The notes under the pieces are model-generated. The model saw only the letters and a list, made by a program, of their open reading frames with translations. It was not told the DNA's origin and did no database searches. Shown in pieces: positions 2,629-47,507 of a stretch of DNA of 64,000 nucleotides. Every line of letters starts with the position of its first letter. Positions within the stretch are counted from its first letter, which is position 1. Both the position numbers and the translations under genes were made by a program. The DNA is from a virus (Duplodnaviria; Heunggongvirae; Uroviricota; Caudoviricetes): the IMG/VR virus record IMGVR_UViG_3300031418_000001; one strand, 5' to 3'.

Positions 2629-3051
2629 ATGAACGTAGTGAATTCAATACGAATGAAATTCTTGACTTACGTAGTAAGGCAACTAAAAATGAGTTATAAT
2701 AAATTAGAAACCCAAGAATTAATAAAAAAATATATTTCCTTAAAATATAATATTGATATTCCTTCTTTTAATGCAGTTCTTACTATAGGTGAGAGTAAGA
2801 ATGTTTACTTTCTTGAATTAATATATCATGGTATCTGGTATTCAATAAGTAACAAACATCCGTTAATGATTCAAGAAAGTAAACAAAAGGGTTCAAGACT
2901 TCTTTATGTAGATGATATTGGGTTAACTAAAGAAGAATATTTTAATTATTCCATAATGTATAATTTCCTTGAAATTATACGTCTTGAAAATGTGAAAGAA
3001 CTAACTGAATTCATTTATAATGAACTTCTACCTTTAGTACTGGATAAGTAA
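2629..3051 (+). CDS. FN-motif paralogue family protein
   Basis: C-terminal TKEEYFNYSIMY. Confidence 0.75.
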   Translation: MNVVNSIRMKFLTYVVRQLKMSYNKLETQELIKKYISLKYNIDIPSFNAVLTIGESKNVYFLELIYHGIWYSISNKHPLMIQESKQKGSRLLYVDDIGLTKEEYFNYSIMYNFLEIIRLENVKELTEFIYNELLPLVLDK

Positions 3052-3052
3052 T

Positions 3053-3394
3053 ATGAAAAAAGATTATGGAAAATTCAAAAAGTATCTAAAAGACGAATTT
3101 AATTATGTACCTGATGGTATCTATTTCGACTTATTTGATATAGAACCAAGCTCATATTATTTTGAATTTGCATCCAGTACTAATATTCTAATTATCGAAG
3201 AAGATAAGGTTGAATTAACTGAATATGATAATCCACTAAATGTCATACATTTCAGCAGTAATGGTACAAGTACCGATGAGTACTTTAATCTTTATTTGAT
3301 TGATGAATTGGCAATTTTATCTAAAGTTGAAAATGTACAAAAATTAAGAAACCACATGAAAGAACAATTGTTGGCGGATTTGATAAAATGGTAG
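3053..3394 (+). CDS. FN-motif paralogue family protein
   Basis: STDEYFNLYLID. Confidence 0.75.
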   Translation: MKKDYGKFKKYLKDEFNYVPDGIYFDLFDIEPSSYYFEFASSTNILIIEEDKVELTEYDNPLNVIHFSSNGTSTDEYFNLYLIDELAILSKVENVQKLRNHMKEQLLADLIKW

Positions 3395-3825
3395 ATTTAG
3401 TAGATGAACGTTCAGAAGAATTAAAGAGACACTGGCTTGATGTTGAAAAGTACATTGAAAACGAACTTGGTTTTAAAATTAAAAATTTTATATGCGGTGT
3501 TAATGATGGTGGTTCTATGGTTCAATTTGAAATCAAAGAACAGAGATTTTTAATTGATCAAAAGAAAATCATAGAAAGTACCTTTGACTCAGGATACGCA
3601 CATCATCTTGTAACTCGCAGGATGGAAAGTGGTTTTAGTAATGATGAATTCTTTAATATGTCATTACAAGATGAAGTAAGTGAAGTACTGAAAGAAGAAA
3701 ATATCTCTAAAATACGAAAGTATATTAAAGATGCTTTGCAAAATTATGTATCGTACCTGATTGAACTTGAAGGTCATATAAAGTTTAAAAATAAAGATGG
3801 AGAAGAAACAAATGAAAAGTCTTAA
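3388..3825 (+). CDS. FN-motif paralogue family protein
   Basis: SNDEFFNMSLQD. Confidence 0.75.
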   Translation: MVDLVDERSEELKRHWLDVEKYIENELGFKIKNFICGVNDGGSMVQFEIKEQRFLIDQKKIIESTFDSGYAHHLVTRRMESGFSNDEFFNMSLQDEVSEVLKEENISKIRKYIKDALQNYVSYLIELEGHIKFKNKDGEETNEKS

Positions 3826-4078
3826 AGAAATGTTTAAAGCACTACCTGGAAACGTCCTTACTGAACTGAAAGCAGAGAAAGATAAGCTAAGTCTGAACTC
3901 TGTAACTAAACGTGTAGTACTGGCGGTACTGTTCCTGATTGTTACCTCTGTTCTCGGTGCAATTATTACTGGAGTATTCAGTACTGGTATCATTTCCTCT
4001 GTTCTGATGATTCTGGTAGTAACCGTTCTGCTGACAGTCTATCAAGTACTTGATCGTGCAATTGATAAAAGTGCTTAA
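3812..4078 (+). CDS. membrane protein (2 TM)
   Basis: Two hydrophobic segments; start set at ATG 3812. Confidence 0.7.
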   Translation: MKSLKEMFKALPGNVLTELKAEKDKLSLNSVTKRVVLAVLFLIVTSVLGAIITGVFSTGIISSVLMILVVTVLLTVYQVLDRAIDKSA

Positions 4079-4085
4079 TTGATTA

Positions 4086-4110
4086 AAGGGGAGCTTAGGC
4101 TCCCTTTTTT
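4086..4110 (+). terminator. intrinsic terminator
   Basis: GGGGAGC TTAG GCTCCCT followed by a T run. Confidence 0.85.
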
Positions 4111-4112
4111 AT

Positions 4113-4505
4113 TTGAGGTACTTTATGCCAACATTTAAATCCCTTTATGAAGTAAAATTAGAAGACTTAACCTTAGATAAGTTCATTGAAGATGGATTAT
4201 CTTATTATAAAGAATATAGCGATTTCAGGTTATACATACATAATAATGTTATGGAATTCTATCATCTTTCATCAACAAGAAAAAACTTTATAATTACTAC
4301 ATTCACCAATGGGTTAATAAAAGATAGTTCAGTGAATAGTTTTTGGCATATGCCATTAGATCCTATTCAAAATAAAGATGACCTTTTTAATATATCAGTA
4401 CAAAAAGATACTTATGATTTAGATTTAGATATTATCAGATACATTGAAAGTATTATTAAAGAAGTTCGTAAGAACTTTTATGATGAATTAAACAACCTGA
4501 GATAA
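4113..4505 (+). CDS. FN-motif paralogue family protein
   Basis: NKDDLFNISVQK; start may be ATG 4125. Confidence 0.75.
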   Translation: MRYFMPTFKSLYEVKLEDLTLDKFIEDGLSYYKEYSDFRLYIHNNVMEFYHLSSTRKNFIITTFTNGLIKDSSVNSFWHMPLDPIQNKDDLFNISVQKDTYDLDLDIIRYIESIIKEVRKNFYDELNNLR

Positions 4506-4508
4506 AAA

Positions 4509-4910
4509 ATGAATGGATCACCTGAAATAATCAGACGTTTTCTTGATAGTACTATCATAGAATTAAATGTGGACTTAATTAGCAGGGAAAAATTCTCAAG
4601 AAATTCTTACCATCTTAATTACCGTAGTGGGAAAAATTCAATAATGGCATTTGTTAACTCATTTGTAATAGCAAATGATGTTTTCATTAAAGAATGCAAA
4701 ATAGATCCAATACATGAAATATTTGAAATACATTTTAATAGAACACGTGAAATGAAGGTTGAACTCCTACATATCCATGACAAAACTGATTTCTTTAATT
4801 ATATTGTACAGAATGAAGCCCCTGGTATGACCTATGATGATGTGCTAAAAATAAAGCTAATTATTGAAAAGATGAATGCAGAAGTTTACCGTAAGTGGAA
4901 TAGATTATGA
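4509..4910 (+). CDS. FN-motif paralogue family protein
   Basis: DKTDFFNYIVQN. Confidence 0.75.
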   Translation: MNGSPEIIRRFLDSTIIELNVDLISREKFSRNSYHLNYRSGKNSIMAFVNSFVIANDVFIKECKIDPIHEIFEIHFNRTREMKVELLHIHDKTDFFNYIVQNEAPGMTYDDVLKIKLIIEKMNAEVYRKWNRL

Positions 4911-5263
4911 TGAATCTACAACGTTTAAAAACAGAACTGGATGTTTCTCATATAAAAAAAGTAGGATTCCGGCCATTATCTAATTTCTATCTTTATGAAA
5001 ATCCAAAAATTCTTATAGAAATTAAAGATGGGAAAGTTATTTTTTATCTTGGTGATGGTCATTTAATATCTGAGGGTAATTTACTTGTTATCAGTTCAAT
5101 GAGTTCAGCTATAAGTACTTTAATTGATATTAAGGGAATTGATAAAGACCAATTGTTTAATGAATCACTTATTCAAGAGCTTTATGGTTTAGATATGGAT
5201 TGTATTAATATTATCAATGAAGTACTGAATATTGTTAAAGAGGTAAAGTTAAAAAATGATTGA
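4907..5263 (+). CDS. FN-motif paralogue family protein
   Basis: DKDQLFNESLIQ. Confidence 0.75.
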   Translation: MMNLQRLKTELDVSHIKKVGFRPLSNFYLYENPKILIEIKDGKVIFYLGDGHLISEGNLLVISSMSSAISTLIDIKGIDKDQLFNESLIQELYGLDMDCINIINEVLNIVKEVKLKND

Positions 5264-5633
5264 CTATAACCAGATTATGCAAGACCTGCCAGTACAGAAC
5301 TTTATTAAAAGTAACTTTAAACGTGATCCTGATTATATGGGATACAGCTATAAAATACAAAATGTAAGATGTATTGTTTCTGAATCATTTATATCCTTTC
5401 CTACTATTGAAGGGAAATTTTATCTTACAATAGGTAATTATCCAGAAGCTGCATTTCATGCTGAAAAACTTGAAGATGATTGGGGTTTTGAATTAAATGA
5501 TATTCATTCTAATGCTGACCTTTTCAATATCCACGTAGAAAAGAACATGTTCGGCATGGACTATAAATTTTGTGAGTACTTAAAGGCATTGCGAGTGCAA
5601 GTCATTAAAGAATTTTTTCCCTGGAAAATGTGA
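5256..5633 (+). CDS. FN-motif paralogue family protein
   Basis: SNADLFNIHVEK. Confidence 0.75.
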   Translation: MIDYNQIMQDLPVQNFIKSNFKRDPDYMGYSYKIQNVRCIVSESFISFPTIEGKFYLTIGNYPEAAFHAEKLEDDWGFELNDIHSNADLFNIHVEKNMFGMDYKFCEYLKALRVQVIKEFFPWKM

Positions 5634-5641
5634 AAAAATTC

Positions 5642-5671: not shown

Positions 5672-5681
5672 AATAGTATCA

Positions 5682-5771: not shown

Positions 5772-5777
5772 TTTTAT

Positions 5778-6657: not shown

Positions 6658-7083
6658 ATGACAAGAAAAGTTAGTTCTTCAATAAAGTTAACGTATAAAG
6701 TACTTTTAAATAATAAAAAGAACTTCATAACGAAGGATCTAAAGCATTGGAATGATTATAGCTTCGGTAATTACATTACTTTGGCTACTTATAAAGATTA
6801 TGAGATTGAAAAGAGAAATTCAGATCATTATAAAATACGCTTAAGTCCGTACTTTGGACTTTCATTCAAAAATGATACGAATGAATGTCAGATACAGACA
6901 AGAAAATTTGGAGAACCAAAGTCACATTACACCTACATTGATTTGAATATCACTACACGTGATGAATTCTTTAATCATATGATGTGCAATGATATTGGTA
7001 CTCTAACGTTTGAAGATTTAGAAGTACTAAAACAAATTAAAAATTTAACTCTTAAAATTATAAAAGGAAATCTTAATGGCTAA
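6658..7083 (+). CDS. FN-motif paralogue family protein
   Basis: TRDEFFNHMMCN. Confidence 0.75.
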   Translation: MTRKVSSSIKLTYKVLLNNKKNFITKDLKHWNDYSFGNYITLATYKDYEIEKRNSDHYKIRLSPYFGLSFKNDTNECQIQTRKFGEPKSHYTYIDLNITTRDEFFNHMMCNDIGTLTFEDLEVLKQIKNLTLKIIKGNLNG

Positions 7084-7705
7084 AATGACACTTACCCAAG
7101 CATTAGTTGAACTGAAAAAACTTGATTCACAGATCAAACGTAGTACTTCGCAGCAGTTCATCGGGTACGTTACCGGTTCAGGTATTTGGGAAAAAACAAG
7201 TGATCGTCGTCATGCTGATAAAGCACAGGCAGAGAAAGCATATCAAGCTGCACTTGACCAAGTACAGTCACTGATTACTCGCCGTACAACTATCAAGAGT
7301 GCTGTTGTTCAGGCTAACGCTACCACTAAAGTAAAAGTTGGTGATGTAGAAATGACTATTGCGGAAGCAATTGAGCGTAAGAACAGCATCAGTATTCAGC
7401 AATCCCTTTTGGGTACACTGATTAAGCAACATGCAGAGGTTGTTAACACAGTAACCCGTCTGGATCACCAGACCAATACTGAAATCAGTCAGCTTCGTGA
7501 AACACTGTCAAGTACTGGTAAGCTGGATGATACCAAACTGAAGCAGGGTTCAGAAGACATTATGACCAAGCAAAAGGCATCACTTGTTGATCCTAACAAG
7601 CTGTCTGACCTGATTGACAAACTGACTGCTGAAATTGAAGATTTCCTGTCAAACGTTGATGTTGCACTGTCTGTAGCTAACGCTACAACCGAAATCGACG
7701 TGTAG
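7076..7705 (+). CDS. coiled-coil protein, putative partner of the downstream ncRNA
   Basis: Internal repeat MTLTQAL/MTIAEAI, C-terminal FLSNVDVALSVANATTEIDV; predicted all-helical. Confidence 0.8.
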   Translation: MAKMTLTQALVELKKLDSQIKRSTSQQFIGYVTGSGIWEKTSDRRHADKAQAEKAYQAALDQVQSLITRRTTIKSAVVQANATTKVKVGDVEMTIAEAIERKNSISIQQSLLGTLIKQHAEVVNTVTRLDHQTNTEISQLRETLSSTGKLDDTKLKQGSEDIMTKQKASLVDPNKLSDLIDKLTAEIEDFLSNVDVALSVANATTEIDV

Positions 7706-10884: not shown

Positions 10885-11151
10885 ATGACATATCTATTAG
10901 CATGGCTTGTAATCGGCTTCATTTCTTCTGTACTAACAAGTACTTATAATACTGAAGAAGTATATGAAATGCGAATGCGTAAATACCTTTCACGTAAAGG
11001 ATTGAAACGTGAAGAACTTCCAAAGGAAGTAACATACGAAACCTATAAAATGTTTTCTTTTGTATTAGGAACAATGTATGGGATCTTTAGTATTATTGGT
11101 TTTTACAGTGTTCGTAGTGATTATATGAGAACTCAGAAAAATAAAAAATGA
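10885..11151 (+). CDS. membrane protein
   Basis: GGAG RBS before ATG 10885; two hydrophobic segments. Confidence 0.65.
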   Translation: MTYLLAWLVIGFISSVLTSTYNTEEVYEMRMRKYLSRKGLKREELPKEVTYETYKMFSFVLGTMYGIFSIIGFYSVRSDYMRTQKNKK

Positions 11152-11486
11152 ATCCAATATTTGAAGTACTCAATAATGGTAAAGGTACGGACTGTATAAA
11201 ATATGAAAGATTATATCCAGATACTTTACAGTACCCAATTGTAATTATATATTATAGTTTATACCGTTTAAGGATAACACCTGAACTATTAACTCTATAT
11301 TATGCTAACATTGATGATGGCTTTTATCATACTATATTAGATACTGTTGATGGTTATGATTCTGATGAGTACTTTAATTTATCTATGGAATATGAATTAA
11401 ATGATATTTGTCTGAAAAATAATATTGACAAAATTCGAAAAATATCGGATAATCTCTCATGTGCCTTACATGTGATTAATTTATAA
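11148..11486 (+). CDS. FN-motif paralogue family protein
   Basis: DSDEYFNLSMEY. Confidence 0.75.
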   Translation: MNPIFEVLNNGKGTDCIKYERLYPDTLQYPIVIIYYSLYRLRITPELLTLYYANIDDGFYHTILDTVDGYDSDEYFNLSMEYELNDICLKNNIDKIRKISDNLSCALHVINL

Positions 11487-28035: not shown

Positions 28036-28036
28036 A

Positions 28037-32589: not shown

Positions 32590-32661
32590 TGGGAATTATT
32601 TCAGTGGTAGAAAGCACAACTGATAATTGTGAGGTCGCTGGTTCGAATCCAGCATTCCCAA
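32590..32661 (+). tRNA. tRNA-Ile(GAU)
   Basis: CACAA-CT GAT AA-TTGTG. Confidence 0.92.
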
Positions 32662-32694
32662 CTAATTTTAACAATAACTAAGAATCCAAACAAT

Positions 32695-33518: not shown

Positions 33519-33902
33519 ATGAATACTATTGAAGCAATTAACATTGTTCATGATAATCTCACTAATGGTATGTTATATCCTTATTACTTCAGATATGATC
33601 AACCACCTGTAGTAGCATTTAAGTACTGCCATCCTACTGAACTTGATAAGTACGTTTATGTACTTCCTCCTATGTGTACTTCTCGTATCGTATGGACTTC
33701 ATTCAGTAAAGATGACGGCGTTATTATTGAACGCAAAAATAACAGACATGTCTGGTATAATAATGGTGATACAATCACTATTCCTAAGATTGATGCAAGC
33801 AATGATAAGTGGTTTAACTTTTCAGTACGTTTCAATCTTACTAAAGAACTGTACCAGAAGTACCTTGATATTTTGAAACATGCTGAGAAACTTACACCAT
33901 GA
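33519..33902 (+). CDS. FN-motif paralogue family protein
   Basis: SNDKWFNFSVRF. Confidence 0.75.
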   Translation: MNTIEAINIVHDNLTNGMLYPYYFRYDQPPVVAFKYCHPTELDKYVYVLPPMCTSRIVWTSFSKDDGVIIERKNNRHVWYNNGDTITIPKIDASNDKWFNFSVRFNLTKELYQKYLDILKHAEKLTP

Positions 33903-34312
33903 ATAATTTCAAACTTACTTATGGTGAAGTACTTCAACTTTTGGTTGATAACCTTGATAGTACACAATTCTTATCTCATTTAGATGATGAGGATGATTGT
34001 GACGATGAAGGTGAAGCGTATTGGCTATGCTACCATTATAAAGATTATGAAATTAATTTTTATTTGGAAGATTTTACGTACTACAGTACATCAGATGGTA
34101 AAAATCCTTATTCATGTTTCAGACCATGTTTCAGTACTCGAAAGGGCAAACACAGTTATCTTAATATCGGTATACCTTGTGCTACTGACATTCCTAAAAC
34201 AAAAGAGGAATGGTTTAACTTCGGTCTTATATATCAAGAGACAAAAGCTGATTTCGAAAACTATCTTAAATTAGTGGAACATCTTAATAATGAGAAGAAT
34301 AAGCTACGGTGA
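33899..34312 (+). CDS. FN-motif paralogue family protein
   Basis: IPKTKEEWFNFGLIY. Confidence 0.8.
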   Translation: MNNFKLTYGEVLQLLVDNLDSTQFLSHLDDEDDCDDEGEAYWLCYHYKDYEINFYLEDFTYYSTSDGKNPYSCFRPCFSTRKGKHSYLNIGIPCATDIPKTKEEWFNFGLIYQETKADFENYLKLVEHLNNEKNKLR

Positions 34313-34637
34313 ACTACTTCGAATTATAGTACAGAATCTTGATAATCATTATTATCAGTTCGATAAGTTCACTATTGAGTACGAACAGTACAAGATAAGT
34401 TATGACCTTCGTGATTCAGTGTTGTATTACCGTTATCAAAATACGGTAGTTGATAGTTTTTGCTACTTCTTTGAATATGCAGAAGGTGAATTTTATTACA
34501 TCAGAGATAATAGTCAAACCATTCCAGTACCACAAACTAAAGAAGACTGGTTTATGTTTGCTATAGAGAATGAGCAAACTAAAGAGGATTTTGATAACTT
34601 AATTAAGATTCATGAATATGCCAAAAACATCAAATAA
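34290..34637 (+). CDS. FN-motif paralogue family protein
   Basis: VPQTKEDWFMFAIE. Confidence 0.8.
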   Translation: MRRISYGELLRIIVQNLDNHYYQFDKFTIEYEQYKISYDLRDSVLYYRYQNTVVDSFCYFFEYAEGEFYYIRDNSQTIPVPQTKEDWFMFAIENEQTKEDFDNLIKIHEYAKNIK

Positions 34638-35058
34638 TTGTCTAAGCTATGAACAAATTCTTGAGTACGTAAGTAATAATCTTGACCTTATTAAACCGTT
34701 CGTTCTTGATGATGTTGTTGAACTTTGTAGTAAAGTAGATGAACACTTCATGAAAATTAGAATTGATGTAACATATTCAAAGTTTCATGTTCTGTATTTT
34801 ATTGATGAATGTTATAATATTACTAATAATATAGAAGTTTTTAAAAAGTTCATTAAGAAACATGATAATTATTACTACTCTGAACTTCCAGCTAAAAGAA
34901 CTCCATATGAAGTTATTGATTCTGAAATTCTGTTGGATATTCCTCAGACAAAAGATGAATGGTTTAATCTTCTTATGACTGATGATTTGTCACAAGAATA
35001 CTTTCTTAAATTCAAAGAGATAATTGTGCACTGTGAAAAGTTACTCGGATTTGCTTAA
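34612..35058 (+). CDS. FN-motif paralogue family protein
   Basis: IPQTKDEWFNLLMT. Confidence 0.8.
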   Translation: MNMPKTSNNCLSYEQILEYVSNNLDLIKPFVLDDVVELCSKVDEHFMKIRIDVTYSKFHVLYFIDECYNITNNIEVFKKFIKKHDNYYYSELPAKRTPYEVIDSEILLDIPQTKDEWFNLLMTDDLSQEYFLKFKEIIVHCEKLLGFA

Positions 35059-35368
35059 AGATATTAAGAAAGATATAAAAAGAAAAACTCATTATCGTGT
35101 TTTTTTGGGTTCTCATGATATTATCGTTTTTACTGTTGCTCTTAATTCATTTAATGGAAACAGGGTTACTAAAGTACCTAAATTAGCAGGTACATTGCGG
35201 TTTGAATCCGATAATAAAGTCTATTACCACTTAGATGATTCGGGTGATAATATTAGAGAACTTCCAGAAGAAAAAGATGAGTTGTTTAACTTCATGGTTT
35301 TCACTGGATTAACTCAAGAAGACATTGATATATTTTGCGAAATTGTAGATTTATATTATGAAAATTAA
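35024..35368 (+). CDS. FN-motif paralogue family protein
   Basis: LPEEKDELFNFMVF. Confidence 0.75.
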   Translation: MCTVKSYSDLLKDIKKDIKRKTHYRVFLGSHDIIVFTVALNSFNGNRVTKVPKLAGTLRFESDNKVYYHLDDSGDNIRELPEEKDELFNFMVFTGLTQEDIDIFCEIVDLYYEN

Positions 35369-35684
35369 TGAAGTACTTGATAGAATAAAAGTGCAGTTAG
35401 ATACAAATCAACCAATACGACGAACATCAGGTAGACATTACATGTTGTTCGAATATGATGTTGTATTTGATGGTTCATCATTTATTCAATCAACATTGGA
35501 AGATTCATTGTGTCATGATAGTTATAAAAATTTGTTGGTATATTTTCCTGACATGAAAAGATACAACAATATAGTAGTACCAGAAAATGATAAAACAGAA
35601 ATGTTTAATTTTCTGATAAGCAACAACTTGAGTACTGATAACATTGAAACGATGCATAGAGTACTTAAGATTTATTACACATAG
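35358..35684 (+). CDS. FN-motif paralogue family protein
   Basis: VPENDKTEMFNFLIS. Confidence 0.75.
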   Translation: MKINEVLDRIKVQLDTNQPIRRTSGRHYMLFEYDVVFDGSSFIQSTLEDSLCHDSYKNLLVYFPDMKRYNNIVVPENDKTEMFNFLISNNLSTDNIETMHRVLKIYYT

Positions 35685-35694
35685 TATTAATATT

Positions 35695-35766
35695 CTCCGG
35701 TTGGGTCATGGGTTGATCGCTTGTTTTGGGAACAAGAATAAGGAAGTTCGAGTCTTTCACTGGAGA
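35695..35766 (+). tRNA. tRNA-Pro(UGG)
   Basis: CTTGT-TT TGG GA-ACAAG. Confidence 0.85.
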
Positions 35767-35785
35767 CAAATAATAAGGACATATT

Positions 35786-36028
35786 ATGAACACATTAAAA
35801 GAAATGGTTCAAGGCGGTAAAGTAGTTAAATTTCAGTACTATCAGGAACACGAGTTATGGTACAGTACTGAATGTGGATTTATGTTTCCTGTGCCATTAG
35901 ATGATACGGGAAATGCTGTGTTTAAGAATGAAGACAAGGCATCTTTCTTTATGCGTTGGATTCGCAAGCATATTGATTACATTAAAAAAGCACAACAAAA
36001 TGAAAACAGTACTGGAACAGAAAGCTGA
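35786..36028 (+). CDS. hypothetical phage protein
   Basis: AAGGA RBS; FPVPLDDTGNAVF..DKA..FMRWIRK. Confidence 0.7.
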   Translation: MNTLKEMVQGGKVVKFQYYQEHELWYSTECGFMFPVPLDDTGNAVFKNEDKASFFMRWIRKHIDYIKKAQQNENSTGTES

Positions 36029-36443
36029 AACACTTTTAACGCTCCTTGAGAATGCAAATCTGAATAATATTAAGGGATTGACTGAAGTTACAATGTCAAT
36101 CCCTGATGATTTAGTACCACATGGTGCAAACATCAAAGAATGGAATTCCAGAAACAGAATTGGTCTTTCTGATTCAATCAATCAATTACAGCCTGGTTAT
36201 TGTCATTTCTTCTTTTTTGTTGATAAAATATCAATCTACTTTTCTAAAGATATAATTTATATCATAGTGGATAATGGCAATGATGAGAAAGATGCTGTTT
36301 ATCGCAATGAATTCTCTGAGTTCATTGATAATTACTTTCAATTGAGTACTAAAGATGACTTGATTTTTAGTAAAGAATTATATGAAAGAGTGTTTAAGTA
36401 CTCAAAAGAATTCAATTGGGTATATAAAGATGAAAGAGAATAA
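36000..36443 (+). CDS. FN-motif paralogue family protein
   Basis: IDNYFQLSTKDD; start set at ATG 36000. Confidence 0.7.
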   Translation: MKTVLEQKAETLLTLLENANLNNIKGLTEVTMSIPDDLVPHGANIKEWNSRNRIGLSDSINQLQPGYCHFFFFVDKISIYFSKDIIYIIVDNGNDEKDAVYRNEFSEFIDNYFQLSTKDDLIFSKELYERVFKYSKEFNWVYKDERE

Positions 36444-36729
36444 TATCCTCCTTGTTTGCTGGGAACAAGATCAAGGTGGGTTCATTGTATTTGATATGTT
36501 ATTCATGGATGAATATGAAGCACAAAAGTATGAACCTCGTCACCAGATGACAACCTCTTTTAAATGTCTTACTCCTGAACAACAATTTAATGAATTTATT
36601 GATTCGCTTGACACATATGAATTCCATCATTTGATGTATGAATTAGTTTGTTATTGTGAATATAATGAAGATACTACAATATTCCATGATGAATTTCATC
36701 CTGTAATGGTAGGACTTGAGTGTAATTAA
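36430..36729 (+). CDS. hypothetical protein
   Basis: ORF in co-oriented run. Confidence 0.6.
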   Translation: MKENNILLVCWEQDQGGFIVFDMLFMDEYEAQKYEPRHQMTTSFKCLTPEQQFNEFIDSLDTYEFHHLMYELVCYCEYNEDTTIFHDEFHPVMVGLECN

Positions 36730-36732
36730 TCA

Positions 36733-37053
36733 ATGAATGTATTTTATATTTGTTATGAATACCGATACGAGCAGATTAAAAAGAAATATATTAGAAGTAA
36801 ATTTATTGTTTCATGGGGTGTTTATGGCGGTAAGATTCGTCATCTTTTGGATCACTATGAATTCAGTGAATTAGCACTATTTGATTGCTTAGTACCGAAA
36901 GATGAACTTGAACAGTACTTTTCTGATTTAAAGAAATATCCGTACAAATACGATAAAATCATGAAGTTTCTTATCGAGATTGAAAGCACTGATTTAGTAG
37001 ATAATAATCCAGATGTTTATTTAAATATGTTTGGATTAAGAAGTAAAATATAA
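36733..37053 (+). CDS. hypothetical protein
   Basis: ORF in co-oriented run. Confidence 0.65.
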   Translation: MNVFYICYEYRYEQIKKKYIRSKFIVSWGVYGGKIRHLLDHYEFSELALFDCLVPKDELEQYFSDLKKYPYKYDKIMKFLIEIESTDLVDNNPDVYLNMFGLRSKI

Positions 37054-37057
37054 CAAT

Positions 37058-37132
37058 TGGGGATTAGTTCAGTTGGTAGAACATCGGATTTTGATTCCGA
37101 CGGCGTGGGTTCGAATCCCGCATCCCCTGCCA
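37058..37132 (+). tRNA. tRNA-Gln(UUG)
   Basis: TCGGA-TT TTG AT-TCCGA, CCA. Confidence 0.92.
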
Positions 37133-37189
37133 AATTATAGAGTCCAGTACATCAACGTGTACTGGACTTTTTTCATATCAGGATTTTAT

Positions 37190-37561
37190 ATGTCAGAACA
37201 AGAAGAACTGAAAGTAATACTGGAGAAAATAAAGTACTACGTCGAGGATGTAGAAACAAGTATGACGCAGCGTGGATATGGTTCAATGCATGGTGGATTT
37301 TGGTATAACAGAGATAAAAATGATAACGTGTCTGTACTGGCTGTCAGTACATTCTATCCTGATATTACATTACCATTAATTATCCATCGTACACACGTAA
37401 CATTTAATGATAACTGTTTCCAGTACGACACTGTAACTGACAAAGATTCATATTTCGCTCAAAGTACAATTGATGATATTCGATTATTTGAAATTGAAGA
37501 CTTTGAATTACTCAGAAAAATTTATACGAAGATGACCGGATATGTCCACCGAGAGAATTAA
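37190..37561 (+). CDS. FN-motif paralogue family protein
   Basis: DKDSYFAQSTID; start ATG 37190. Confidence 0.7.
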   Translation: MSEQEELKVILEKIKYYVEDVETSMTQRGYGSMHGGFWYNRDKNDNVSVLAVSTFYPDITLPLIIHRTHVTFNDNCFQYDTVTDKDSYFAQSTIDDIRLFEIEDFELLRKIYTKMTGYVHREN

Positions 37562-37919
37562 ACAAGATGTTAAGTACGTAAAGAATATTCTGAAGTTCTC
37601 TAAAAAATATGTACAAACTGTAATTGAACCTAATAAGATTCATCGAGGGGATTATACTAAGATTAGTATTGGTCATCGTATTACTATACAGAAAACTGAT
37701 AATTCTGATTTTTATTATTTCTTCTTCCTGGGTAATCAAATCTTCAATTTATATGATGATGAGATATTAATATCAGGTGCAATAAAATTTAACTACAAAG
37801 AATATCAAGAGAAAGATGTATATTTTAATGCCATGATAAATGATTCACTTCATGGATTTAGTAAGCAAGACTTCTCTGATATGGAGTACTTATATAAGAG
37901 GCTTAGAACTTTGTTATGA
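37542..37919 (+). CDS. FN-motif paralogue family protein
   Basis: EKDVYFNAMIND. Confidence 0.75.
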   Translation: MSTERIKQDVKYVKNILKFSKKYVQTVIEPNKIHRGDYTKISIGHRITIQKTDNSDFYYFFFLGNQIFNLYDDEILISGAIKFNYKEYQEKDVYFNAMINDSLHGFSKQDFSDMEYLYKRLRTLL

Positions 37920-38332
37920 TATATTTAAAAGACATTTTAAATGAAGCTAAAACGGGTGGATACTTTTATTCTAACTATACATTAAGTAAACTTTTTATAG
38001 TAAAAAAATATCATGAAGATCATATTTACCGTTTGTATCGTGGCAATTTAAATTGTTTATATCTTAGTATTCATGATCCAGGTGATCGTACAGATATGAA
38101 TATTACTTTAAGATTCATCGGTGATCACACGTACATAAATTTTGGTGGAGAAGAAGAATTTATATTGATCCCAAATGAAAATGCGGGTTCAGATGAGTGG
38201 TTCAACTTTAATATACAAAATAGTTCATTGAGGAAAAGTGATTTTTATCCTGAACTCACTGGTTTATTAGATTTCTTAACTGAAGAATATAACCGAGTTT
38301 TTATGAAGATGCTGGAAGATAAAGGATTGTAG
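37916..38332 (+). CDS. FN-motif paralogue family protein
   Basis: GSDEWFNFNIQN. Confidence 0.75.
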   Translation: MIYLKDILNEAKTGGYFYSNYTLSKLFIVKKYHEDHIYRLYRGNLNCLYLSIHDPGDRTDMNITLRFIGDHTYINFGGEEEFILIPNENAGSDEWFNFNIQNSSLRKSDFYPELTGLLDFLTEEYNRVFMKMLEDKGL

Positions 38333-38686
38333 ATGTTACTCACCGGAAAATGCCCTAAATGCGGCTGTACGGGCATTCATGCCTGTATGGGTGCACCAGT
38401 TGCACCAATGACTGCACATCAGCTACAGAAGCTGGAAAACGTAATTAAACACATAGCTCAATCAGAAAAAGAAAGGAAAAATACAATGACATTAACTAAA
38501 GAACAAATCAAAAACCTCGCTATTTTTGCTGGTTTTCATGTACAGGATATTAGTGGTTCAGAAGCAAGTACTGAATATGTAGTACGTGACGGTACTATTA
38601 CTGGTGAAAATGGTGCACCTGATTATAACGGTCTTATTGCATATGATCGTGAATATCCAGAAGATGGAGCTATTTCTCTTGACTGA
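38333..38686 (+). CDS. hypothetical protein (N-terminal CxxCxC)
   Basis: CPKCGCTGIHAC; possible internal start at MTLTKE. Confidence 0.6.
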   Translation: MLLTGKCPKCGCTGIHACMGAPVAPMTAHQLQKLENVIKHIAQSEKERKNTMTLTKEQIKNLAIFAGFHVQDISGSEASTEYVVRDGTITGENGAPDYNGLIAYDREYPEDGAISLD

Positions 38687-39101
38687 ATATTTACATCCTG
38701 GAAAAATTAACGAGATTCATGATAAGATTAAACACCTTCTTATGAACTTTAATAAATTATCCAAGTCCATGAATAGAAGTCATTATGAACTTCCTGGCGT
38801 GAACTATTTTATTGAAAGTGGAATTTACCGAAACAGATTCTTTTTTGTTATAATGACAATGGATCATGAGTATCTATTTTCAATCGGTAATATGATGGAT
38901 AGTTTTGTTGGAATGGAATTTTATTGTGGTAATGATGAACCTTACTTAGTAATTCCATTTCCAGAAGAGTTAAGTACTGATGCATATTTCAATTTAAGTA
39001 CTTTACATGATCTTAAGAATGTATCTTTGGAATTCATGATTGATTCAAAAGAACTCTATAATAAACTGGAGATTTGTATTGGACACAAAACTATCATTTA
39101 G
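38664..39101 (+). CDS. FN-motif paralogue family protein
   Basis: STDAYFNLSTLH. Confidence 0.75.
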   Translation: MELFLLTEYLHPGKINEIHDKIKHLLMNFNKLSKSMNRSHYELPGVNYFIESGIYRNRFFFVIMTMDHEYLFSIGNMMDSFVGMEFYCGNDEPYLVIPFPEELSTDAYFNLSTLHDLKNVSLEFMIDSKELYNKLEICIGHKTII

Positions 39102-39549
39102 AAGTGCTATTAATAAGGGTCAGGCTACAGCGGCCCTTTCTGCATTAGGTCATATGAATATTGTTAGTTCAATTAATAATAATTGGGATTTAGCTTCAAA
39201 AATTAATCCAGAACATCTTGATTATATTAAACTCAATAGACAATGCCAATGTTTCAGTACTCACATCCTTAGTATACCTTTAGATACATATGAAATATTT
39301 GTAGTAATTGATCAACAAACTGATTATTTTGAAGTATTTTATCCTAATCATTCATTGTGTATGGTAAGTGCAGATAATTTTACATCCCTTGATGATGGTT
39401 CATCATTCGGTTTATTACTTCCAACTTATTTGAAAATTGAATGTAATGGTGATTATTTTAATTACACAGTAAATTCAAAACTGATACCAGTTCCGTATGA
39501 ATTTTTTGAAGTACTTCATGTATTACATGATAAGATAAAATTATTATGA
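39040..39549 (+). CDS. FN-motif paralogue family protein
   Basis: NGDYFNYTVNS; start uncertain. Confidence 0.65.
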   Translation: MIQKNSIINWRFVLDTKLSFRSAINKGQATAALSALGHMNIVSSINNNWDLASKINPEHLDYIKLNRQCQCFSTHILSIPLDTYEIFVVIDQQTDYFEVFYPNHSLCMVSADNFTSLDDGSSFGLLLPTYLKIECNGDYFNYTVNSKLIPVPYEFFEVLHVLHDKIKLL

Positions 39550-39944
39550 TAGCAGATTCAATTAAAGAATTTTTCTTCGAAATGGTTAAAGATGGGATCA
39601 GCCTTATCGCTGGATCAGATACACATCATTCAGAAGACCAATCGTGTACAAGAATATTTTCTATACAAACACTGTACGGGAATACTATGTTTATAAGAAC
39701 ATATGTTCCTAAAAAAAGTATAATCAGTAATACAAATTCGATTGATATTGATGGAATCAGTCTCATGTTTAGATTACTGGAACGTGGTATAGTAATTTAC
39801 ACAGATGATTCAGAATATACATTTGGATACAATTGTACACAACAAGAAATCGACAGTACTAACTTTGAACTAAAATTAGATACTGAATGTATTAAATTAA
39901 TACACGGCTTTAAGACCTATATTGACAAGTACTTTATTAAATAA
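39546..39944 (+). CDS. hypothetical protein (possible divergent FN-family member)
   Basis: Similar size and C-terminal helix. Confidence 0.6.
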   Translation: MIADSIKEFFFEMVKDGISLIAGSDTHHSEDQSCTRIFSIQTLYGNTMFIRTYVPKKSIISNTNSIDIDGISLMFRLLERGIVIYTDDSEYTFGYNCTQQEIDSTNFELKLDTECIKLIHGFKTYIDKYFIK

Positions 39945-39974
39945 TCTTAGGATTATTTTCATAAGGTACTGGTA

Positions 39975-40331
39975 ATGTATTATAATAACTTAAAAGTAGA
40001 AAAGATTAGTGCTACAGAATGGAAACTTCTGGAGGACTTAGTATATATGGATGTTAAGCATGGTGCCATCGGTGTTCCAGTTGACTATGTGACTGATTTT
40101 GCAAGTGTTCCGAGATTACCAATAGTATTTGACTTTCTTGGTGATATAGGTCATGCTGCTGCCACAATTCATGATTATCTCTATGACAATGGTAAGCTGA
40201 CCAAAAAAGAATGCGATGATGTTTTTCATCGTGCATTACTTGATGATGGTATTGGTGCAATAAGATCATATATCATGTACAGTGGTGTAAAACTATTTGG
40301 ATTCAGGGCATTTAAAAGAGCACGTTCTTAA
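39975..40331 (+). CDS. DUF1353 family protein
   Basis: VPVDYVTDFASVPR..AATIHDYLY..ECDDVF. Confidence 0.85.
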   Translation: MYYNNLKVEKISATEWKLLEDLVYMDVKHGAIGVPVDYVTDFASVPRLPIVFDFLGDIGHAAATIHDYLYDNGKLTKKECDDVFHRALLDDGIGAIRSYIMYSGVKLFGFRAFKRARS

Positions 40332-40377
40332 TAATTAAAGTACCACTTGTTGGTACTTTTCTTTTGGGTAAAATTCA

Positions 40378-40809
40378 ATGATTAAATTCTCTCAAACTGT
40401 TAATAAAAGTACTTATCGTCGCCGTATGGCAAATTTCAATAATTTAATGAAAATCCTTAAAGATAAGGAAAGTACTTTTTTTCCTGAGATTATTAAACAG
40501 CTTAATGAAGATGAAGTACTTGGTGCATCATGGCCTCATGGTTACATGAATGATCTTTATGTTGAGTACGAACATTCAGTAGACTATATCAGTATCCAGG
40601 GTAAAACTTGCGGTATTAGAATCACACCGGAACTTATTTCTATTAATGTTCAAGGTATGAGCTTTATGGGTATCAGTACTGATGCTTCTAAAGATGAATA
40701 TTTCAATCAGTCAGTAAGTGAAGATATGTATAATTTAAATTTCAACAATATCTTGTACTTACAGGATTTGAAAGAAAAGATTAATAACTATAAGAATTAT
40801 GGAAAATAA
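40378..40809 (+). CDS. FN-motif paralogue family protein
   Basis: SKDEYFNQSVSE. Confidence 0.75.
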   Translation: MIKFSQTVNKSTYRRRMANFNNLMKILKDKESTFFPEIIKQLNEDEVLGASWPHGYMNDLYVEYEHSVDYISIQGKTCGIRITPELISINVQGMSFMGISTDASKDEYFNQSVSEDMYNLNFNNILYLQDLKEKINNYKNYGK

Positions 40810-41296
40810 CATGGAACACAAAAAACCTTTTAAGCAATTGAAAAATGCTCTGATGATTATTGCATCTAATCATTCATCCATTATGAATGAAATATCCAAA
40901 AGTAAAAACTACAAAAAAATTGAGAATCCATTTATAAGTACTGCTGGTGCTCCTTGGCATACACTTAAGGCTCCGCGTAATGATATTGAATTTGATATTA
41001 CTATTGGTAATGATTATCTTCCACAATTACATCTACAAAAGCAGTCTAATAAGTTTATCATTATGTATAATGGTGCAACATATTACATTGATTCCTACAA
41101 TATTTCAGCACATGAAGATGTTGGGTATCCTATACTTCAGGTAGACATTAGTGGTATTGATTCTAAAACTGATATGTTTAGTCTTAGTACGGTACGTGAT
41201 TTCTTTGATTTGGACTATAATGATATTGAGGCATTGAATTACTATATGTCATCTGCTAACAGTGCTTATAATAAGTTGAAACATAATCATGTTTGA
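40799..41296 (+). CDS. FN-motif paralogue family protein
   Basis: SKTDMFSLSTVR. Confidence 0.7.
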   Translation: MENNMEHKKPFKQLKNALMIIASNHSSIMNEISKSKNYKKIENPFISTAGAPWHTLKAPRNDIEFDITIGNDYLPQLHLQKQSNKFIIMYNGATYYIDSYNISAHEDVGYPILQVDISGIDSKTDMFSLSTVRDFFDLDYNDIEALNYYMSSANSAYNKLKHNHV

Positions 41297-41527: not shown

Positions 41528-42658
41528 TTATGTGCCTGATACGATGATTCTTGCCTGGATTGGATTGATAACTGAGATAGTTATATTTGATGAAGAGTCA
41601 ACACTAATGGATTCATGTGATACTTCGTACACATCAGTTCCTGTTAATTCAGAAACCTGTACTACTACATCAGATGATTTGCTATGTTCAGATTGTGGAA
41701 TACTTAAGGTAAAGTAGCCGTTCTGGTCTACCCAATCAGAAGTACTTACAGTCTTAACATATAAGTCATTTGTCAAAAGAAGAACATTAGTATCAGTTGG
41801 TGTTACCTGATTTAATGTAATATCATGTGAAGTGTTATTGTATGATACTTTTGGTGTATATACCTGACCAGTAGTGTACTGAGTCTGAATGATGAAATCG
41901 GTTTCAGCATGGGTACTACCAAGTAGTACTGCACTGAATGAGTCATCTGACTGTTTGACGAATGATGCTTGCGGTATTAAGAAAGATAATACATTGTCAT
42001 CATCACCAATTACGTTAACTGTACCATTAGTACTCTGATAAAAATCAGATTTAACGGTAACGACAAAAGTACCAGATGATAATGCAGGTACTGGTATACT
42101 GAATGTGCCATCAGAGTTAACATCAGATGTATACTCAACACCATCAATCACAACCGTCACAGTCATTCCATCAGTGTTTAAACCTGCTGAACTGTATGGA
42201 AGAATAGTACCATTGATTACGGTATCACCTGCGTTTATACGTTCAAATACAATTGAACCTAATGGCGGTTTTGGTAGTGAACATGTAGGTGGTACAAGAT
42301 TATATAAATGTCTTCCGTCTGCTAATATTACTTTATTGTCATAGAACTTAATAGCGAATCCATGATCGCCTTGCTCATTCATTGAACGAACGTAGAACTG
42401 ACCAGGTTTAAGTAGTGATGGTAAGTCATCATCTGACATATCATAGTCAAGTAGTGAACCTTGTTTGTTCAAACCTGTAATACGAAGAGACGGATAGATA
42501 GTACCATCTATGTCTCTTATATCATAGTCATATGAGTTGCGTTGCTTTTGTATTCTGGCATCTTTAATAACCGTGCCATCTTTTAGTACTGCACCCTGAA
42601 TAAGAAATCCACATATACCATAGGGATACCTTCCAGCGGCTGCTACTGTTTTTGCCAT
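41528..42658 (-). CDS. putative virion protein with an Ig-like (Big) domain
   Basis: TVTVVIDGVEYTSDVNSDGTFSIPVPAL Ig-like strand pattern; GGAGG RBS; GGGGTAAATA motif upstream. Confidence 0.65.
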   Translation of the reverse strand: MAKTVAAAGRYPYGICGFLIQGAVLKDGTVIKDARIQKQRNSYDYDIRDIDGTIYPSLRITGLNKQGSLLDYDMSDDDLPSLLKPGQFYVRSMNEQGDHGFAIKFYDNKVILADGRHLYNLVPPTCSLPKPPLGSIVFERINAGDTVINGTILPYSSAGLNTDGMTVTVVIDGVEYTSDVNSDGTFSIPVPALSSGTFVVTVKSDFYQSTNGTVNVIGDDDNVLSFLIPQASFVKQSDDSFSAVLLGSTHAETDFIIQTQYTTGQVYTPKVSYNNTSHDITLNQVTPTDTNVLLLTNDLYVKTVSTSDWVDQNGYFTLSIPQSEHSKSSDVVVQVSELTGTDVYEVSHESISVDSSSNITISVINPIQARIIVSGT

Positions 42659-44921: not shown

Positions 44922-45143
44922 ATGAGTGTTCTAATTTCGTACATCACTGCGTTGTTGAGAAAGCATGACATTCATAATTTGAATAGCATAGCGACTTCGG
45001 TATACTGTGGTGATTATACTGTACAAGAAGCTGTACAGATATTCCGGTTAAACCTTAAAGATGTGGATTACCTGGCTGATGCAGTCAATAAGTACTATCA
45101 GCATGAAACCTACATCCAAGAACGTGTAAGAGGTAACGCATAA
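44922..45143 (+). CDS. hypothetical protein
   Basis: Sigma70-like promoter and GGGGG RBS upstream. Confidence 0.65.
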   Translation: MSVLISYITALLRKHDIHNLNSIATSVYCGDYTVQEAVQIFRLNLKDVDYLADAVNKYYQHETYIQERVRGNA

Positions 45144-45453
45144 TGAAACAGTACCTGGTTGAATATATTCGTACTGGCGTATCCAGACCTGACCAGAAAC
45201 AGGTTGGTGCATATAACGAAACTGATGCTATTCGTCGTGTTCGTGAAGAATATGGTTTCAACAATGTAACTATCAAAAGTTGTCGTGAAGCACGTTAATT
45301 ACATTGTAGTACCCGAATAAACAAAAAAGCCGGAATAAAGAATCTGGCTTTTTTATTGCCTGCAAAACAAGATTAATACCATTCACGTACTTTCATATAA
45401 GTATCAAAATGTTGTATTAGTATGTTCCCCTTATTATAAAGAGATAGTACAGA

Positions 45454-46416
45454 ATGGCTAAAGAGTTGAACTTAGATAACCACATTGAAGATGAAGTACT
45501 GAATGAGATTTTCACTAACGAAAATAATACATTTGAGAACTTAGCCGCTTTAGACTACGAAAGTGTTGAAGAAGTTGAACGTGAAATCATTACCGCAAAA
45601 CCAATCAAAGGTAAATCCGACAAAACGAATGAAGAACTTGTGATCCTTATTCGTGCTGGTGTTGATGTACAAAAGAACCGTGAACGCCTCGTAGTACAGA
45701 ATGCTGGTATTGTATACAAAGAAGCGAAAGCATGTACCTGTCGTATTCCATTCGATGATAAAGTACAGTACGGCTTTGAAGGTCTGATTAACAGCATTGA
45801 AGGTTTTGATCCTACCTTGAACTACAAGTTCAATACTTATGCAGGCCGTATTATTCGCCAGCATATGTATCGTTATGGAAACCGTGAAGCCCGTGGTATT
45901 GAAATTCCTGAGTACTTAAGTAAAGAAAACATTGTTATTCAAAAGTACTTAACTGATTTCGTAAATGATAACTCTCGTGAGCCTTCAGAACAGGAAATTA
46001 GTACTGGTACTGGTATTGCTCTAAGCCGTGTTAAACGTGCATTGCGTCATAACAGTAATTCATATTCATTAGATACACCAACTACATCTGATAATGAACT
46101 GACATTGCAGGATGTAATTACATCTGATGATCCTAATTACAACCTGAATGAATATGCGAAAAGTACCCCATTGCATGAAGTACTTGATATTGTATTCCCT
46201 GAAATTAAACCACTTGAAGCAGAAATTATATCTCTGGTTCATGGTTTAAATGGTAATAAGGTTCATACCTTTGATGAAATTATTGATTTAGGTATTGTTG
46301 ATGATAACGGTTCCTTCATTAGTTCTAAGCCGACTCTTTCCCGCCGCTACAAAGCCGCTATTGAAAGCGTTAAGCGTGTGATCTCACGTAAGAAGATTTA
46401 TCTTAGCGATTTTTAA
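45454..46416 (+). CDS. RNA polymerase sigma70-family factor
   Basis: RERLVVQNAGIV, DKVQYGFEGLINSIEGFDPTLNYKFNTYA (region 2), REPSEQEI and SLDTP (region 3), HTFDEI (region 4). Confidence 0.9.
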   Translation: MAKELNLDNHIEDEVLNEIFTNENNTFENLAALDYESVEEVEREIITAKPIKGKSDKTNEELVILIRAGVDVQKNRERLVVQNAGIVYKEAKACTCRIPFDDKVQYGFEGLINSIEGFDPTLNYKFNTYAGRIIRQHMYRYGNREARGIEIPEYLSKENIVIQKYLTDFVNDNSREPSEQEISTGTGIALSRVKRALRHNSNSYSLDTPTTSDNELTLQDVITSDDPNYNLNEYAKSTPLHEVLDIVFPEIKPLEAEIISLVHGLNGNKVHTFDEIIDLGIVDDNGSFISSKPTLSRRYKAAIESVKRVISRKKIYLSDF

Positions 46417-46613
46417 TAAAAGTATTATTAAAAGATAAAAAATATATCAAGTACCTGATGCTAATGTAATGTTGGTATCAGGTATCTTTATTGAGAATCA
46501 ATCTCAATCGTTTATAAGCAAATGTGATATAGATTAGATTTTGTGATTTAGTACTTGTGTATCAGGGCCAGTACATCTATAATGGGTTCATGTTGGTTGA
46601 CAGGGGGATTTAT

Positions 46614-46784
46614 ATGAACGAAGACCCACCCAATAATAGGAATTTTCCTGATCATGAAAATTATGAAGATGCCTATTTAGCTGCTATCCTCAAAACCGAT
46701 TTACTTGAGGCATGTGGTAAAATTGATTATAATGAAATTTTCGCTATTAGAGACAAAAGGTTGAATAAGAATGGAAACAGCTAA
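46614..46784 (+). CDS. hypothetical protein
   Basis: GGGGG RBS before ATG 46614. Confidence 0.55.
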   Translation: MNEDPPNNRNFPDHENYEDAYLAAILKTDLLEACGKIDYNEIFAIRDKRLNKNGNS

Positions 46785-47028
46785 AAGCATTGAAATCAAA
46801 AAGAGTCTCGTGCTGGAAAAAGAAGCAATCATTGAGTCTCAGCGTTTAGAGATTAAAGAATTGTTCAACAAGAAAACCGACATGATCCAGAACAACAACG
46901 GTATTGTAAACAAAGAAGTCGATGAAGTTACGCACAATATCAATCGTTTGTTTGATTCAAAAGCTAAGTTTGAAGCTGAAGTAAAAGTACTGAAGAATGA
47001 TATTCTCAATCTGGTACTATATGCATGA
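46771..47028 (+). CDS. coiled-coil hypothetical protein
   Basis: Heptad-like pattern. Confidence 0.65.
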   Translation: METAKSIEIKKSLVLEKEAIIESQRLEIKELFNKKTDMIQNNNGIVNKEVDEVTHNINRLFDSKAKFEAEVKVLKNDILNLVLYA

Positions 47029-47507
47029 AGTGGATTAAAGCCCTGATTTCAGGGCATAAAGAAACCGGAATTAGATTGGATGATTATCTTCATGACTTGA
47101 AATTTGAAGTACACGAAGATAAAAAATATAGTAATATGTTCGATGTTCAGTACCGTATTGAGTTTTCTGAAGATAAGAAAGGACGTATTATAAGTGCAAG
47201 AAATTTACCATATATAGTTATTGTCAAGTACAATAATGAAGTACTTCAATCATTTGAACTATATCAATCATCGTTCTCAGTAGATTATAAGTTACAGATG
47301 AAAGTCGATTATCATGAACAAATATTCATGATGAAAATGAAGTATACTGATGATGAAATTAGTACTTTCAGATTTGAAGACATGAGAAGTCCAGATTTTA
47401 TCTTCAATTATGATATTGAAAATGGTGCTGGTGAACAAATTAAAGCGTACATTGAAGAAATAGATTTCTTGTTTACAGAATACGGTTCCCGCAAATATTT
47501 GAGCTAA
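47025..47507 (+). CDS. probable FN-motif family protein
   Basis: SPDFIFNYDIEN. Confidence 0.6.
   Translation: MKWIKALISGHKETGIRLDDYLHDLKFEVHEDKKYSNMFDVQYRIEFSEDKKGRIISARNLPYIVIVKYNNEVLQSFELYQSSFSVDYKLQMKVDYHEQIFMMKMKYTDDEISTFRFEDMRSPDFIFNYDIENGAGEQIKAYIEEIDFLFTEYGSRKYLS

Follow-up and report, generated by a model that had tools for sequence, protein, structure and literature searches.

A paralogous protein family in a RaK2-like jumbo phage

In the 64,000-nucleotide stretch of Caudoviricetes DNA held as IMG/VR virus record IMGVR_UViG_3300031418_000001 (here called the window), 22 to 26 genes were found to encode small proteins that form one paralogous family and share a conserved element near their C-terminus. 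The reading that we favour, and to which we attach an even chance, is that these proteins represent one small single-domain family (about 110-150 amino acids (aa), mostly acidic), which has been expanded in RaK2-like jumbo phages, carries a C-terminal helical anchor and has a non-virion, host-binding role. The original prediction, made from the sequence alone, had viewed them as a modular adaptor library comparable to F-box proteins, in which a constant docking module binds one hub. This mechanism as stated is not supported; the family itself is real, clade-wide and undescribed.

The family was delimited from the motif that first drew attention to it. Among the 190 open reading frames (ORFs) of at least 60 aa in the window, 17 matched the regular expression [DE]x[FYWL]F[NQ], 16 of them on the + strand, whereas 1000 residue shuffles gave a mean of 2.52 matching ORFs (standard deviation 1.58, maximum 9). 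The motif is thus real by the very shuffle control that the original prediction had named as a possible refutation, and its proposed location near the C-terminus was confirmed as well, with the motif starting 30-60 residues before the end in all 16 + strand ORFs and 30-42 residues before it in 14 of these. When the 16 seeds were used to train a hidden Markov model (HMM) of the C-terminal module, another six + strand ORFs scored 13-20.5 bits, compared to a best score of 10.3 bits in a tenfold shuffled database; iteration settled at 22 members, and no - strand ORF was among them. A full-length profile of 50 family sequences added four borderline ORFs in the same blocks (14.4-19.8 bits versus a shuffled maximum of 14.3). 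Therefore, the large paralogous family that had been proposed does exist, but its size is 22 firm and four borderline members rather than about 30. Its blocks also do not reach position 47507, as had been suggested; the last firm member ends at 40809, and the ORFs at 5256-5633, 20817-21194, 24745-24990 and 47025-47507 have no support as members (at most 9.8 bits with the 50-sequence profile). The median isoelectric point of the members is 5.0, versus 5.9 for other ORFs of like size.

Full-length orthologues of the members, with 52-99% identity, were found in other samples, and one contig from another study covers the entire 33519-41296 block at about 98.7% identity. Within the family genes, 15 of 26 substitutions were synonymous, compared to 19.9% expected (p = 2.5e-5), which corresponds to a ratio of nonsynonymous to synonymous substitution rates (dN/dS) of roughly 0.2; this test drew on 40 of 209 strain substitutions (26 within family genes) and was used as a stand-in for a full dN/dS analysis. 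Judged by these comparisons, the family ORFs are real genes under purifying selection. In addition, eight short contigs from a metatranscriptome library of another study, with 92-100% identity, lie over family genes and their neighbours between 33812 and 38418. These contigs could be phage transcripts or DNA carry-over, and the stretches of the block left uncovered in this run do not mean silence.

Several observations bear on the source of the window. The ClpP-fold protease that it encodes (32629-33360, + strand; Pfam CLP_protease, 6.5e-19) has 64-66% identity to its counterparts in Xanthomonas phage XaC1 and the Klebsiella phages K64-1 and RaK2, a contig of 349,418 bp carries one member protein, and the DNA of the window recurs in metagenomes of the phyllosphere and of plants that were sampled in several studies. 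Soil, groundwater, food and aquatic runs that shared a small part of the sequence words were given no weight for the habitat. Based on this sequence identity and occurrence, we assign the window to a leaf-surface jumbo phage of RaK2-like type with a genome of about 349 kb. The G+C content of the window is 33-37%, and small + strand genes are dense in it, together with 20 tRNA genes.

The conserved element and the remainder of the protein

Column statistics from 64 non-redundant family sequences define the conserved element as [STDN]-K-[DE]-[ED]-[YFW]-F-[NQ]-h-S-h. The F is invariant (64/64), the residue before it is Y, F or W in 57 sequences, and the residue after it is N or Q in 58. The position of the helix N-cap is occupied by S, T, D or N in 58 of the 64 sequences and positions N2 and N3 by D or E in 51-53, with K standing between the N-cap and N2. 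In both AlphaFold models described below, the first helix of the predicted hairpin begins exactly at the motif, and the helix that follows has a similar S/T-x-E-D box at its start and a 3-4 hydrophobic stripe. Both capping boxes and hydrophobic staples are well-known signals for the start of a helix. The motif could therefore be a helix N-capping box (S, T, D or N as the N-cap and acidic residues at N2 and N3) followed by an aromatic pair that would plug into the core; it would then be the unchangeable part of the fold, leaving the sheet and the first helix free to diverge. In view of the models, we infer that the motif is mainly a structural anchor.

Only the C-terminal 50 or so residues are detectably homologous between subfamilies. 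When subfamily profiles were compared with hhalign, the C-modules scored 15-48 (median probability 83.5%) and decoys at most 12, whereas the N-terminal parts scored 10-19 and decoys 9-13. Searches for homology of the N-terminal parts between paralogues, by pairwise phmmer, by leave-one-out HMM, by column information against a shuffled-and-realigned control and by hhalign, all gave results at control level. The claim that the proteins share little except the module is therefore borne out even by profile-profile comparison. Apparently conserved D, Y, F and P columns in an alignment of the N-terminal parts were considered and dropped, as they were at the level of the shuffled-and-realigned control. 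Within orthologues, the two parts have diverged equally; among eight orthologue pairs, the N-terminal part was 71.5% identical and the C-module 70.8% (Fisher p = 0.83), so that the faster evolution expected of a recognition part compared to a docking part was not seen.

Predicted fold

AlphaFold models were obtained for two members without mutual similarity in their N-terminal parts, those starting at 40378 (model m14d531e180b3) and 3053 (model mc47cf9f5d99b; a helix, five strands and two or three helices). Both share a helix, a five-strand meander, a short helix and a long helix, with predicted template modelling scores (pTM) of 0.62 and 0.67 for the two models and predicted local distance difference test scores (pLDDT) of 68.8 (40378) and 73.5 (3053). 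Both also match, over nearly their full length, the same BFVD models of small proteins of the RaK2 clade, and the BFVD models were built independently of the family alignment used here. These matches include K4F9N8 of phage GAP32 (TM 0.57/0.68, root-mean-square deviation (rmsd) 3.7 over 124 columns), A0A2C9CZD9 of Yersinia phage fHe-Yen9-03, A0A7L8ZPV5 of Erwinia phage pEa_SNUABM_50 and H6X421 of RaK2. Taking together the shared topology of the models, the BFVD matches, the relatives of uniform size that align from end to end (see below) and the equal divergence of the N- and C-terminal parts in orthologues, it is moderately supported that each member is one compact domain, predicted to consist of an N-terminal helix, a five-stranded antiparallel sheet and a helical hairpin. 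Crude Chou-Fasman propensities indicate a strand-rich stretch 30-55 residues before the F, and are too coarse to count.

Fold searches of the Protein Data Bank (PDB) did not find a solved structure above background, and Foldseek against the PDB gave E values of 0.14 or higher. The best Z scores in a wide VIA search were 5.2 for the first model (colicin N) and 4.2 for the second, which had different proteins on top. Polo-box domains, p32/Mam33 and the receptor domain of colicin N, which recurred weakly, likewise have an antiparallel sheet with helices on one face, but their Z scores (colicin N 5.2, with rmsd 2.8 over 78 aligned residues; gC1qR 4.9; Plk2 polo-box domain 4.5) all lie under the 7-8 that is usual background for the tool, and membership cannot be claimed from them; polo-box domains also appeared, weakly, in Foldseek. 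The ESM Atlas model of the member starting at 33899 is poor (pLDDT 0.46) and its nearest clusters are at chance level, so that PsiB, at 0.77, is a lead only.

Distribution of the family

An exhaustive profile search of 1.84 billion representative sequences yielded 25 hits (clusters), all of 110-151 aa and nearly all aligned over most of their length, and a word-indexed search yielded nine clusters within the same size range. Many true members are missed among 1.8 billion sequences, because a highly divergent profile of 130 residues needs about 40 bits. Phage records were searched with the family profile, and motif-bearing copies were found in XaC1, 121Q, GAP32, RaK2 and Erwinia phage pEa_SNUABM_19. 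In XaC1 there are 27 profile matches and 32 distinct ORFs in the parts of the record fetched, and profile searches of whole phage records gave 12 copies in 121Q, five in GAP32, three in RaK2 and two in pEa_SNUABM_19; in PA5oct, a phage with published RNA-seq, no copy was detectable by profile search. The motif is constant across the clade (e.g., SKDEYFNLSL in XaC1) and is looser in RaK2 (e.g., EEEFFQQST). The copies in RaK2 (ORF184, ORF186 and ORF187) and copies in 121Q (gp80, gp84 and gp85) have a common neighbourhood, with a gene for a virion protein on one side and one for a DNA methyltransferase on the other. By profile and motif, the family spans the RaK2-like jumbo phage clade, with a copy number that is very uneven between genera (2 to more than 30).

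All copies are annotated as hypothetical. Among 50 scanned sequences, no Pfam family common to the members was found and there were no ClpS hits, and sequence searches of NCBIfam and the PDB gave no consistent match. PADLOC, which holds defence rather than anti-defence models, gave three single, unrelated and weak matches among the 50 sequences. Neither megablast of the window nor tblastn of two members matched any of 50,697 phage records, searches with single members in viral and genome contigs found no loci, and the literature examined on jumbo phages, RaK2 and XaC1 does not describe the family. The PHROGs database does hold parts of it. PHROGs 24321, 24941 and 17453 were matched by 10, 8 and 6 of the 50 family sequences (best E value 1.8e-6), and these three, together with 36582, 22160, 24510 and 23322, are pieces of the family from sequenced RaK2-like phages. 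In that database the family is split into about nine small unnamed groups in which no common motif has been recognised, and most members in the window match none of them. The family is undescribed; Pfam has no entry for it, none of its relatives has a solved structure, and none of its copies carries a functional label.

Large paralogous expansions as such are familiar in jumbo phages. About 10% paralogues have been noted in RaK2 (PMC3622015), and Bacillus phage G carries a zinc ribbon in about 35 copies (Iyer et al. 2021, PMC7824862). The present family resembles such expansions in its large, genus-variable copy number and presumed host interaction; it differs from the phage G zinc ribbon in its fold, and in that only about 10 residues stay recognisable among its members.

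Possible roles of the family

Under the favoured reading of a single-domain family with a helical anchor, the copies would be accessory proteins that are not part of the virion, and their divergent surfaces would attach, during takeover, to various proteins of the host or of its defences. That the copies bind diversified targets is a reasonable idea, and a host- or defence-binding function is one that we infer only. Several points weigh against this reading. The contigs from the RNA library are no proof of transcription. Homology of the N-terminal parts cannot be demonstrated from sequence, and the evidence for the shared fold therefore comes from models of moderate confidence (pLDDT 69 and 74), which have one common, noisy and poorly aligned multiple sequence alignment behind them. 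Moreover, the conservation of K at N1, of N or Q following the F and of S two positions further on exceeds what helix capping would require; these residues could form a putative common binding site.

A more specific proposal, which we consider unlikely, is that the copies are a repertoire of binders on one minimal scaffold, in which a fixed capped-helix anchor carries a surface of sheet and helix that is free to mutate, and each copy would neutralise a host defence or takeover target of its own. If this were true, the copy number would track the diversity of host defences; in the plant-associated phages it ranges from 22 to more than 30. In a variant of this proposal, the K-D-E-Y-F-N-x-S patch would also dock every copy onto one shared, putative machine.

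Docking is the central element of the modular adaptor library, in which the C-terminal module would place all paralogues on one hub (a protease, an ATPase, the sigma factor or a host machine) while the remainder recruits targets; this we regard as rather doubtful, somewhat more so than the binder repertoire. It would account for the conservation of the module alone across paralogues, including the polar K, D/E, N/Q and S. What stands of the idea is a real paralogous family with a constant C-terminal element and an unrecognisably divergent remainder. What does not stand is a separable docking module like that of F-box proteins. The F-box proteins are similar to the family in that numerous paralogues diverge except in a short helical element that all of them conserve, but the F-box is an autonomous domain of about 45 aa that is joined to separate recognition domains (WD40, LRR, kelch), whereas each relative here is a single domain of 110-151 aa whose core is predicted to include the conserved element. 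F-box-like modularity, with different partner domains and different sizes, was looked for and rejected, as 25 of 25 hits are 110-151 aa long. The module was never seen on another kind of domain or as a separate protein among these hits of the exhaustive search, the models place it as an integral part of one compact domain, and the N-terminal parts do not evolve faster in orthologues.

The hubs that had been put forward were the ClpP-fold protease and a putative AAA+ ATPase at 47566. In favour of the former, the ClpP-fold gene has family genes to either side, here and in XaC1, and phage ClpP attacking host proteins has been proposed for the patchily distributed ClpP genes of jumbo phages (Iyer et al., PMC7824862). 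However, an orthologue of the window ClpP (46-64% identity) was found in RaK2, XaC1 and an Erwinia phage only. Phages 121Q and GAP32, with 12 and five copies of the family, have just the 27-29% identical ClpP-fold paralogue that is common to all relatives, and in RaK2 the family (162-164 kb) and the ClpP gene (222 kb) lie 58 kb apart. ClpP is thus not borne out as the hub. Clp adaptors of the ClpS, SspB or MecA type were considered as well and rejected; Pfam gave no match of any member to ClpS or to other known adaptor families, and co-occurrence with ClpP across genomes fails. With regard to the gene itself, the GTG listed as its start falls within tRNA-Ile (32590-32662) and similarity to the relatives sets in around residue 33, so that the true start of the ClpP-fold gene lies downstream.

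The second candidate (47566-48351, + strand; 261 aa; phrog_1250, function unassigned) is a P-loop NTPase by its Walker A (GAAGVGKS) and Walker B-like (VLLLDD) motifs; no Pfam or NCBIfam family was matched, and the more specific AAA+ label is therefore left without a named family behind it. As it is encoded by a core gene in all five relatives (41-62% identity), its co-occurrence with the family is uninformative and it is unsupported as a specific hub. On these genome comparisons, neither the ClpP-fold protease nor the NTPase at 47566 is supported as a specific hub.

Alternatively, all copies could have one ligand or catalytic site in common, for example as a sponge for a small molecule or nucleotide, with the remainder serving as a fast-drifting scaffold. 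The conserved polar and aromatic cluster K-D-E-Y-F-N-x-S at a helix N-terminus is compatible with this, as the N-terminus of a helix is a common anion-binding geometry. We nevertheless regard such a site as improbable, since 20-30 genes per genome for one and the same activity would be superfluous, no known sponge or enzyme families were matched and there are no conserved residues outside the segment to complete a pocket.

Polymorphic internal proteins are known in the T4-related clade, where IPI, IPII and IPIII are small and combine a short constant signal with variable bodies directed against host defences. That the present proteins are packaged and injected as anti-defence payloads in this manner, with the element as a capsid-targeting or protease-processing signal, is very improbable and the least likely explanation of all, for although a ClpP-fold protease with the database label head maturation protease adjoins the arrays and the acidic residues of the motif resemble prohead-protease cleavage sites, the T4 signal is a cleaved N-terminal leader whereas the element here lies within a predicted helix near the C-terminus, the would-be P1 residue is mostly D and not E, the RaK2 copies are annotated as hypothetical while the nearby ORF175 and ORF182 are annotated as virion structural, and a second, distant ClpP-fold gene (25-30% identity), present in all five relatives examined, is probably the true prohead protease. 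A search for a T4-type N-terminal capsid-targeting leader found no conservation of the N-terminal parts above controls, the only element being the one 30-60 residues from the C-terminus.

Members and their genomic setting

The family genes form closely packed arrays on the + strand, with many stop and start codons overlapping and tRNA genes in between, outside the virion modules. Within blocks, neighbouring members abut or overlap by at most 35 bases. This packing fits polycistronic arrays. A scan of the window for sigma-70 promoters gave fewer matches than in shuffles. All members listed below are on the + strand and, unless stated otherwise, were seeds matched by the regular expression and recovered by the HMM.

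The first block comprises the members at 2629-3051 (140 aa, TKEEYFNYS; 48 bits with the module HMM), 3053-3394 (113 aa, STDEYFNLY), 3388-3825 (145 aa, SNDEFFNMS; orthologue P0024, 70%), 4113-4505 (130 aa; orthologue P0015, 99%), for which ATG 4125 with GAGG upstream is a likelier start, 4509-4910 (133 aa) and 4907-5263 (118 aa, DKDQLFNES). The member at 4509 carries DKTDFFNYI, which the strict regular expression misses, and scored 14.7 bits in the first HMM round (shuffled maximum 10.3) and 46.9 bits after convergence. Single members follow at 6658-7083 (141 aa, TRDEFFNHM; orthologues P0005-P0008), with weak matches to PHROGs 17453, 24510 and 24941, at 11148-11486 (112 aa, DSDEYFNLS) and at 20365-20820 (151 aa, DKHSYFQYS), the last found by the HMM (14.7 bits in the first round, 45.8 bits on convergence). 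A protein of tail-fibre type (phrog_1491) is encoded among the small-gene arrays at 7076-7705 (+).

Two further members found by the HMM are those at 24151-24504 (117 aa, DRNEFFQLN) and 24987-25337 (116 aa, DKNEFFQLS; orthologue P0019, 97%), which form a full-length cluster with an XaC1 copy. Between two family members in this tRNA-rich region lies a tRNA with a four-base anticodon (gaga), of an identity left undefined by ARAGORN (24650-24731, +). An HNH endonuclease (26520-27041, +) and an R2K-clade ATP-grasp protein (27998-28858, +) are both encoded within the tRNA cluster.

The largest block opens 159 bp past the ClpP-fold gene with the member at 33519-33902 (127 aa, SNDKWFNFS; orthologue P0022, 80%) and continues with those at 33899-34312 (137 aa, TKEEWFNFG; P0013, 83%), 34290-34637 (115 aa, TKEDWFMFA; found by the HMM at 20.5 bits in the first round and 47.6 bits on convergence), 34612-35058 (148 aa, TKDEWFNLL; P0016, 64%) and 35024-35368 (114 aa, EKDELFNFM; P0021, 97%). 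Three subsequent members had over-long upstream starts. These are the member of about 147 aa at 36000-36443 (FIDNYFQLS), which likely starts at ATG 36000 and not at the listed 35901, the HMM-detected member of 123 aa at 37190-37561 (orthologue P0020, 88%), for which ATG 37190 has AGGA upstream while the listed TTG at 37073 overlaps tRNA-Gln, and the member of 119 aa at 38742-39101 (STDAYFNLS; P0029, 61%), which likely starts at ATG 38742 and not at 38586. The remaining firm members are at 37542-37919 (125 aa, EKDVYFNAM; P0030, 52%), 37916-38332 (138 aa, GSDEWFNFN) and 40378-40809 (143 aa, SKDEYFNQS). The borderline members, with their scores and aligned positions in the 50-sequence profile, are those at 23765-24142 (125 aa; 14.8 bits, against the shuffled maximum of 14.3; positions 18-121), 35358-35684 (108 aa; 19.8 bits; positions 9-116), 39040-39549 (169 aa; 14.4 bits) and 40799-41296 (165 aa; 16.8 bits; positions 13-123).

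A virion structural protein (phrog_10468) is encoded among the small-gene arrays by a lone - strand gene (41528-42658). Downstream of the arrays is a gene for a sigma-70 family factor with regions 2 and 3 (45454-46416, +), and XaC1 has one at the syntenic place. Beyond the P-loop NTPase gene, the - strand carries a tandem array of six or seven paralogues of 375-448 aa with RCC1-like repeat domains (48380-57013), a GAP32 relative of which is annotated as 'regulator of chromosome condensation', and this array is followed by a gene for a glycine-rich-domain protein (57851-58684).

Implications

Giant phages carry hundreds of small genes of unassigned function. Here, 2 to more than 30 hypothetical genes per genome, from at least six genera-level lineages, are joined in one family by a simple diagnostic motif. 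The family is testable, because two of its carriers can be grown on hosts that are easy to work with, E. coli for 121Q and Xanthomonas vesicatoria for XaC1. If the copies are not inhibitors, they would represent one more lineage-specific expansion of a sort already known from jumbo phages. If, however, they have diversified to inhibit host systems, the family would offer a wealth of anti-defence or takeover proteins, as well as a natural minimal binder scaffold.

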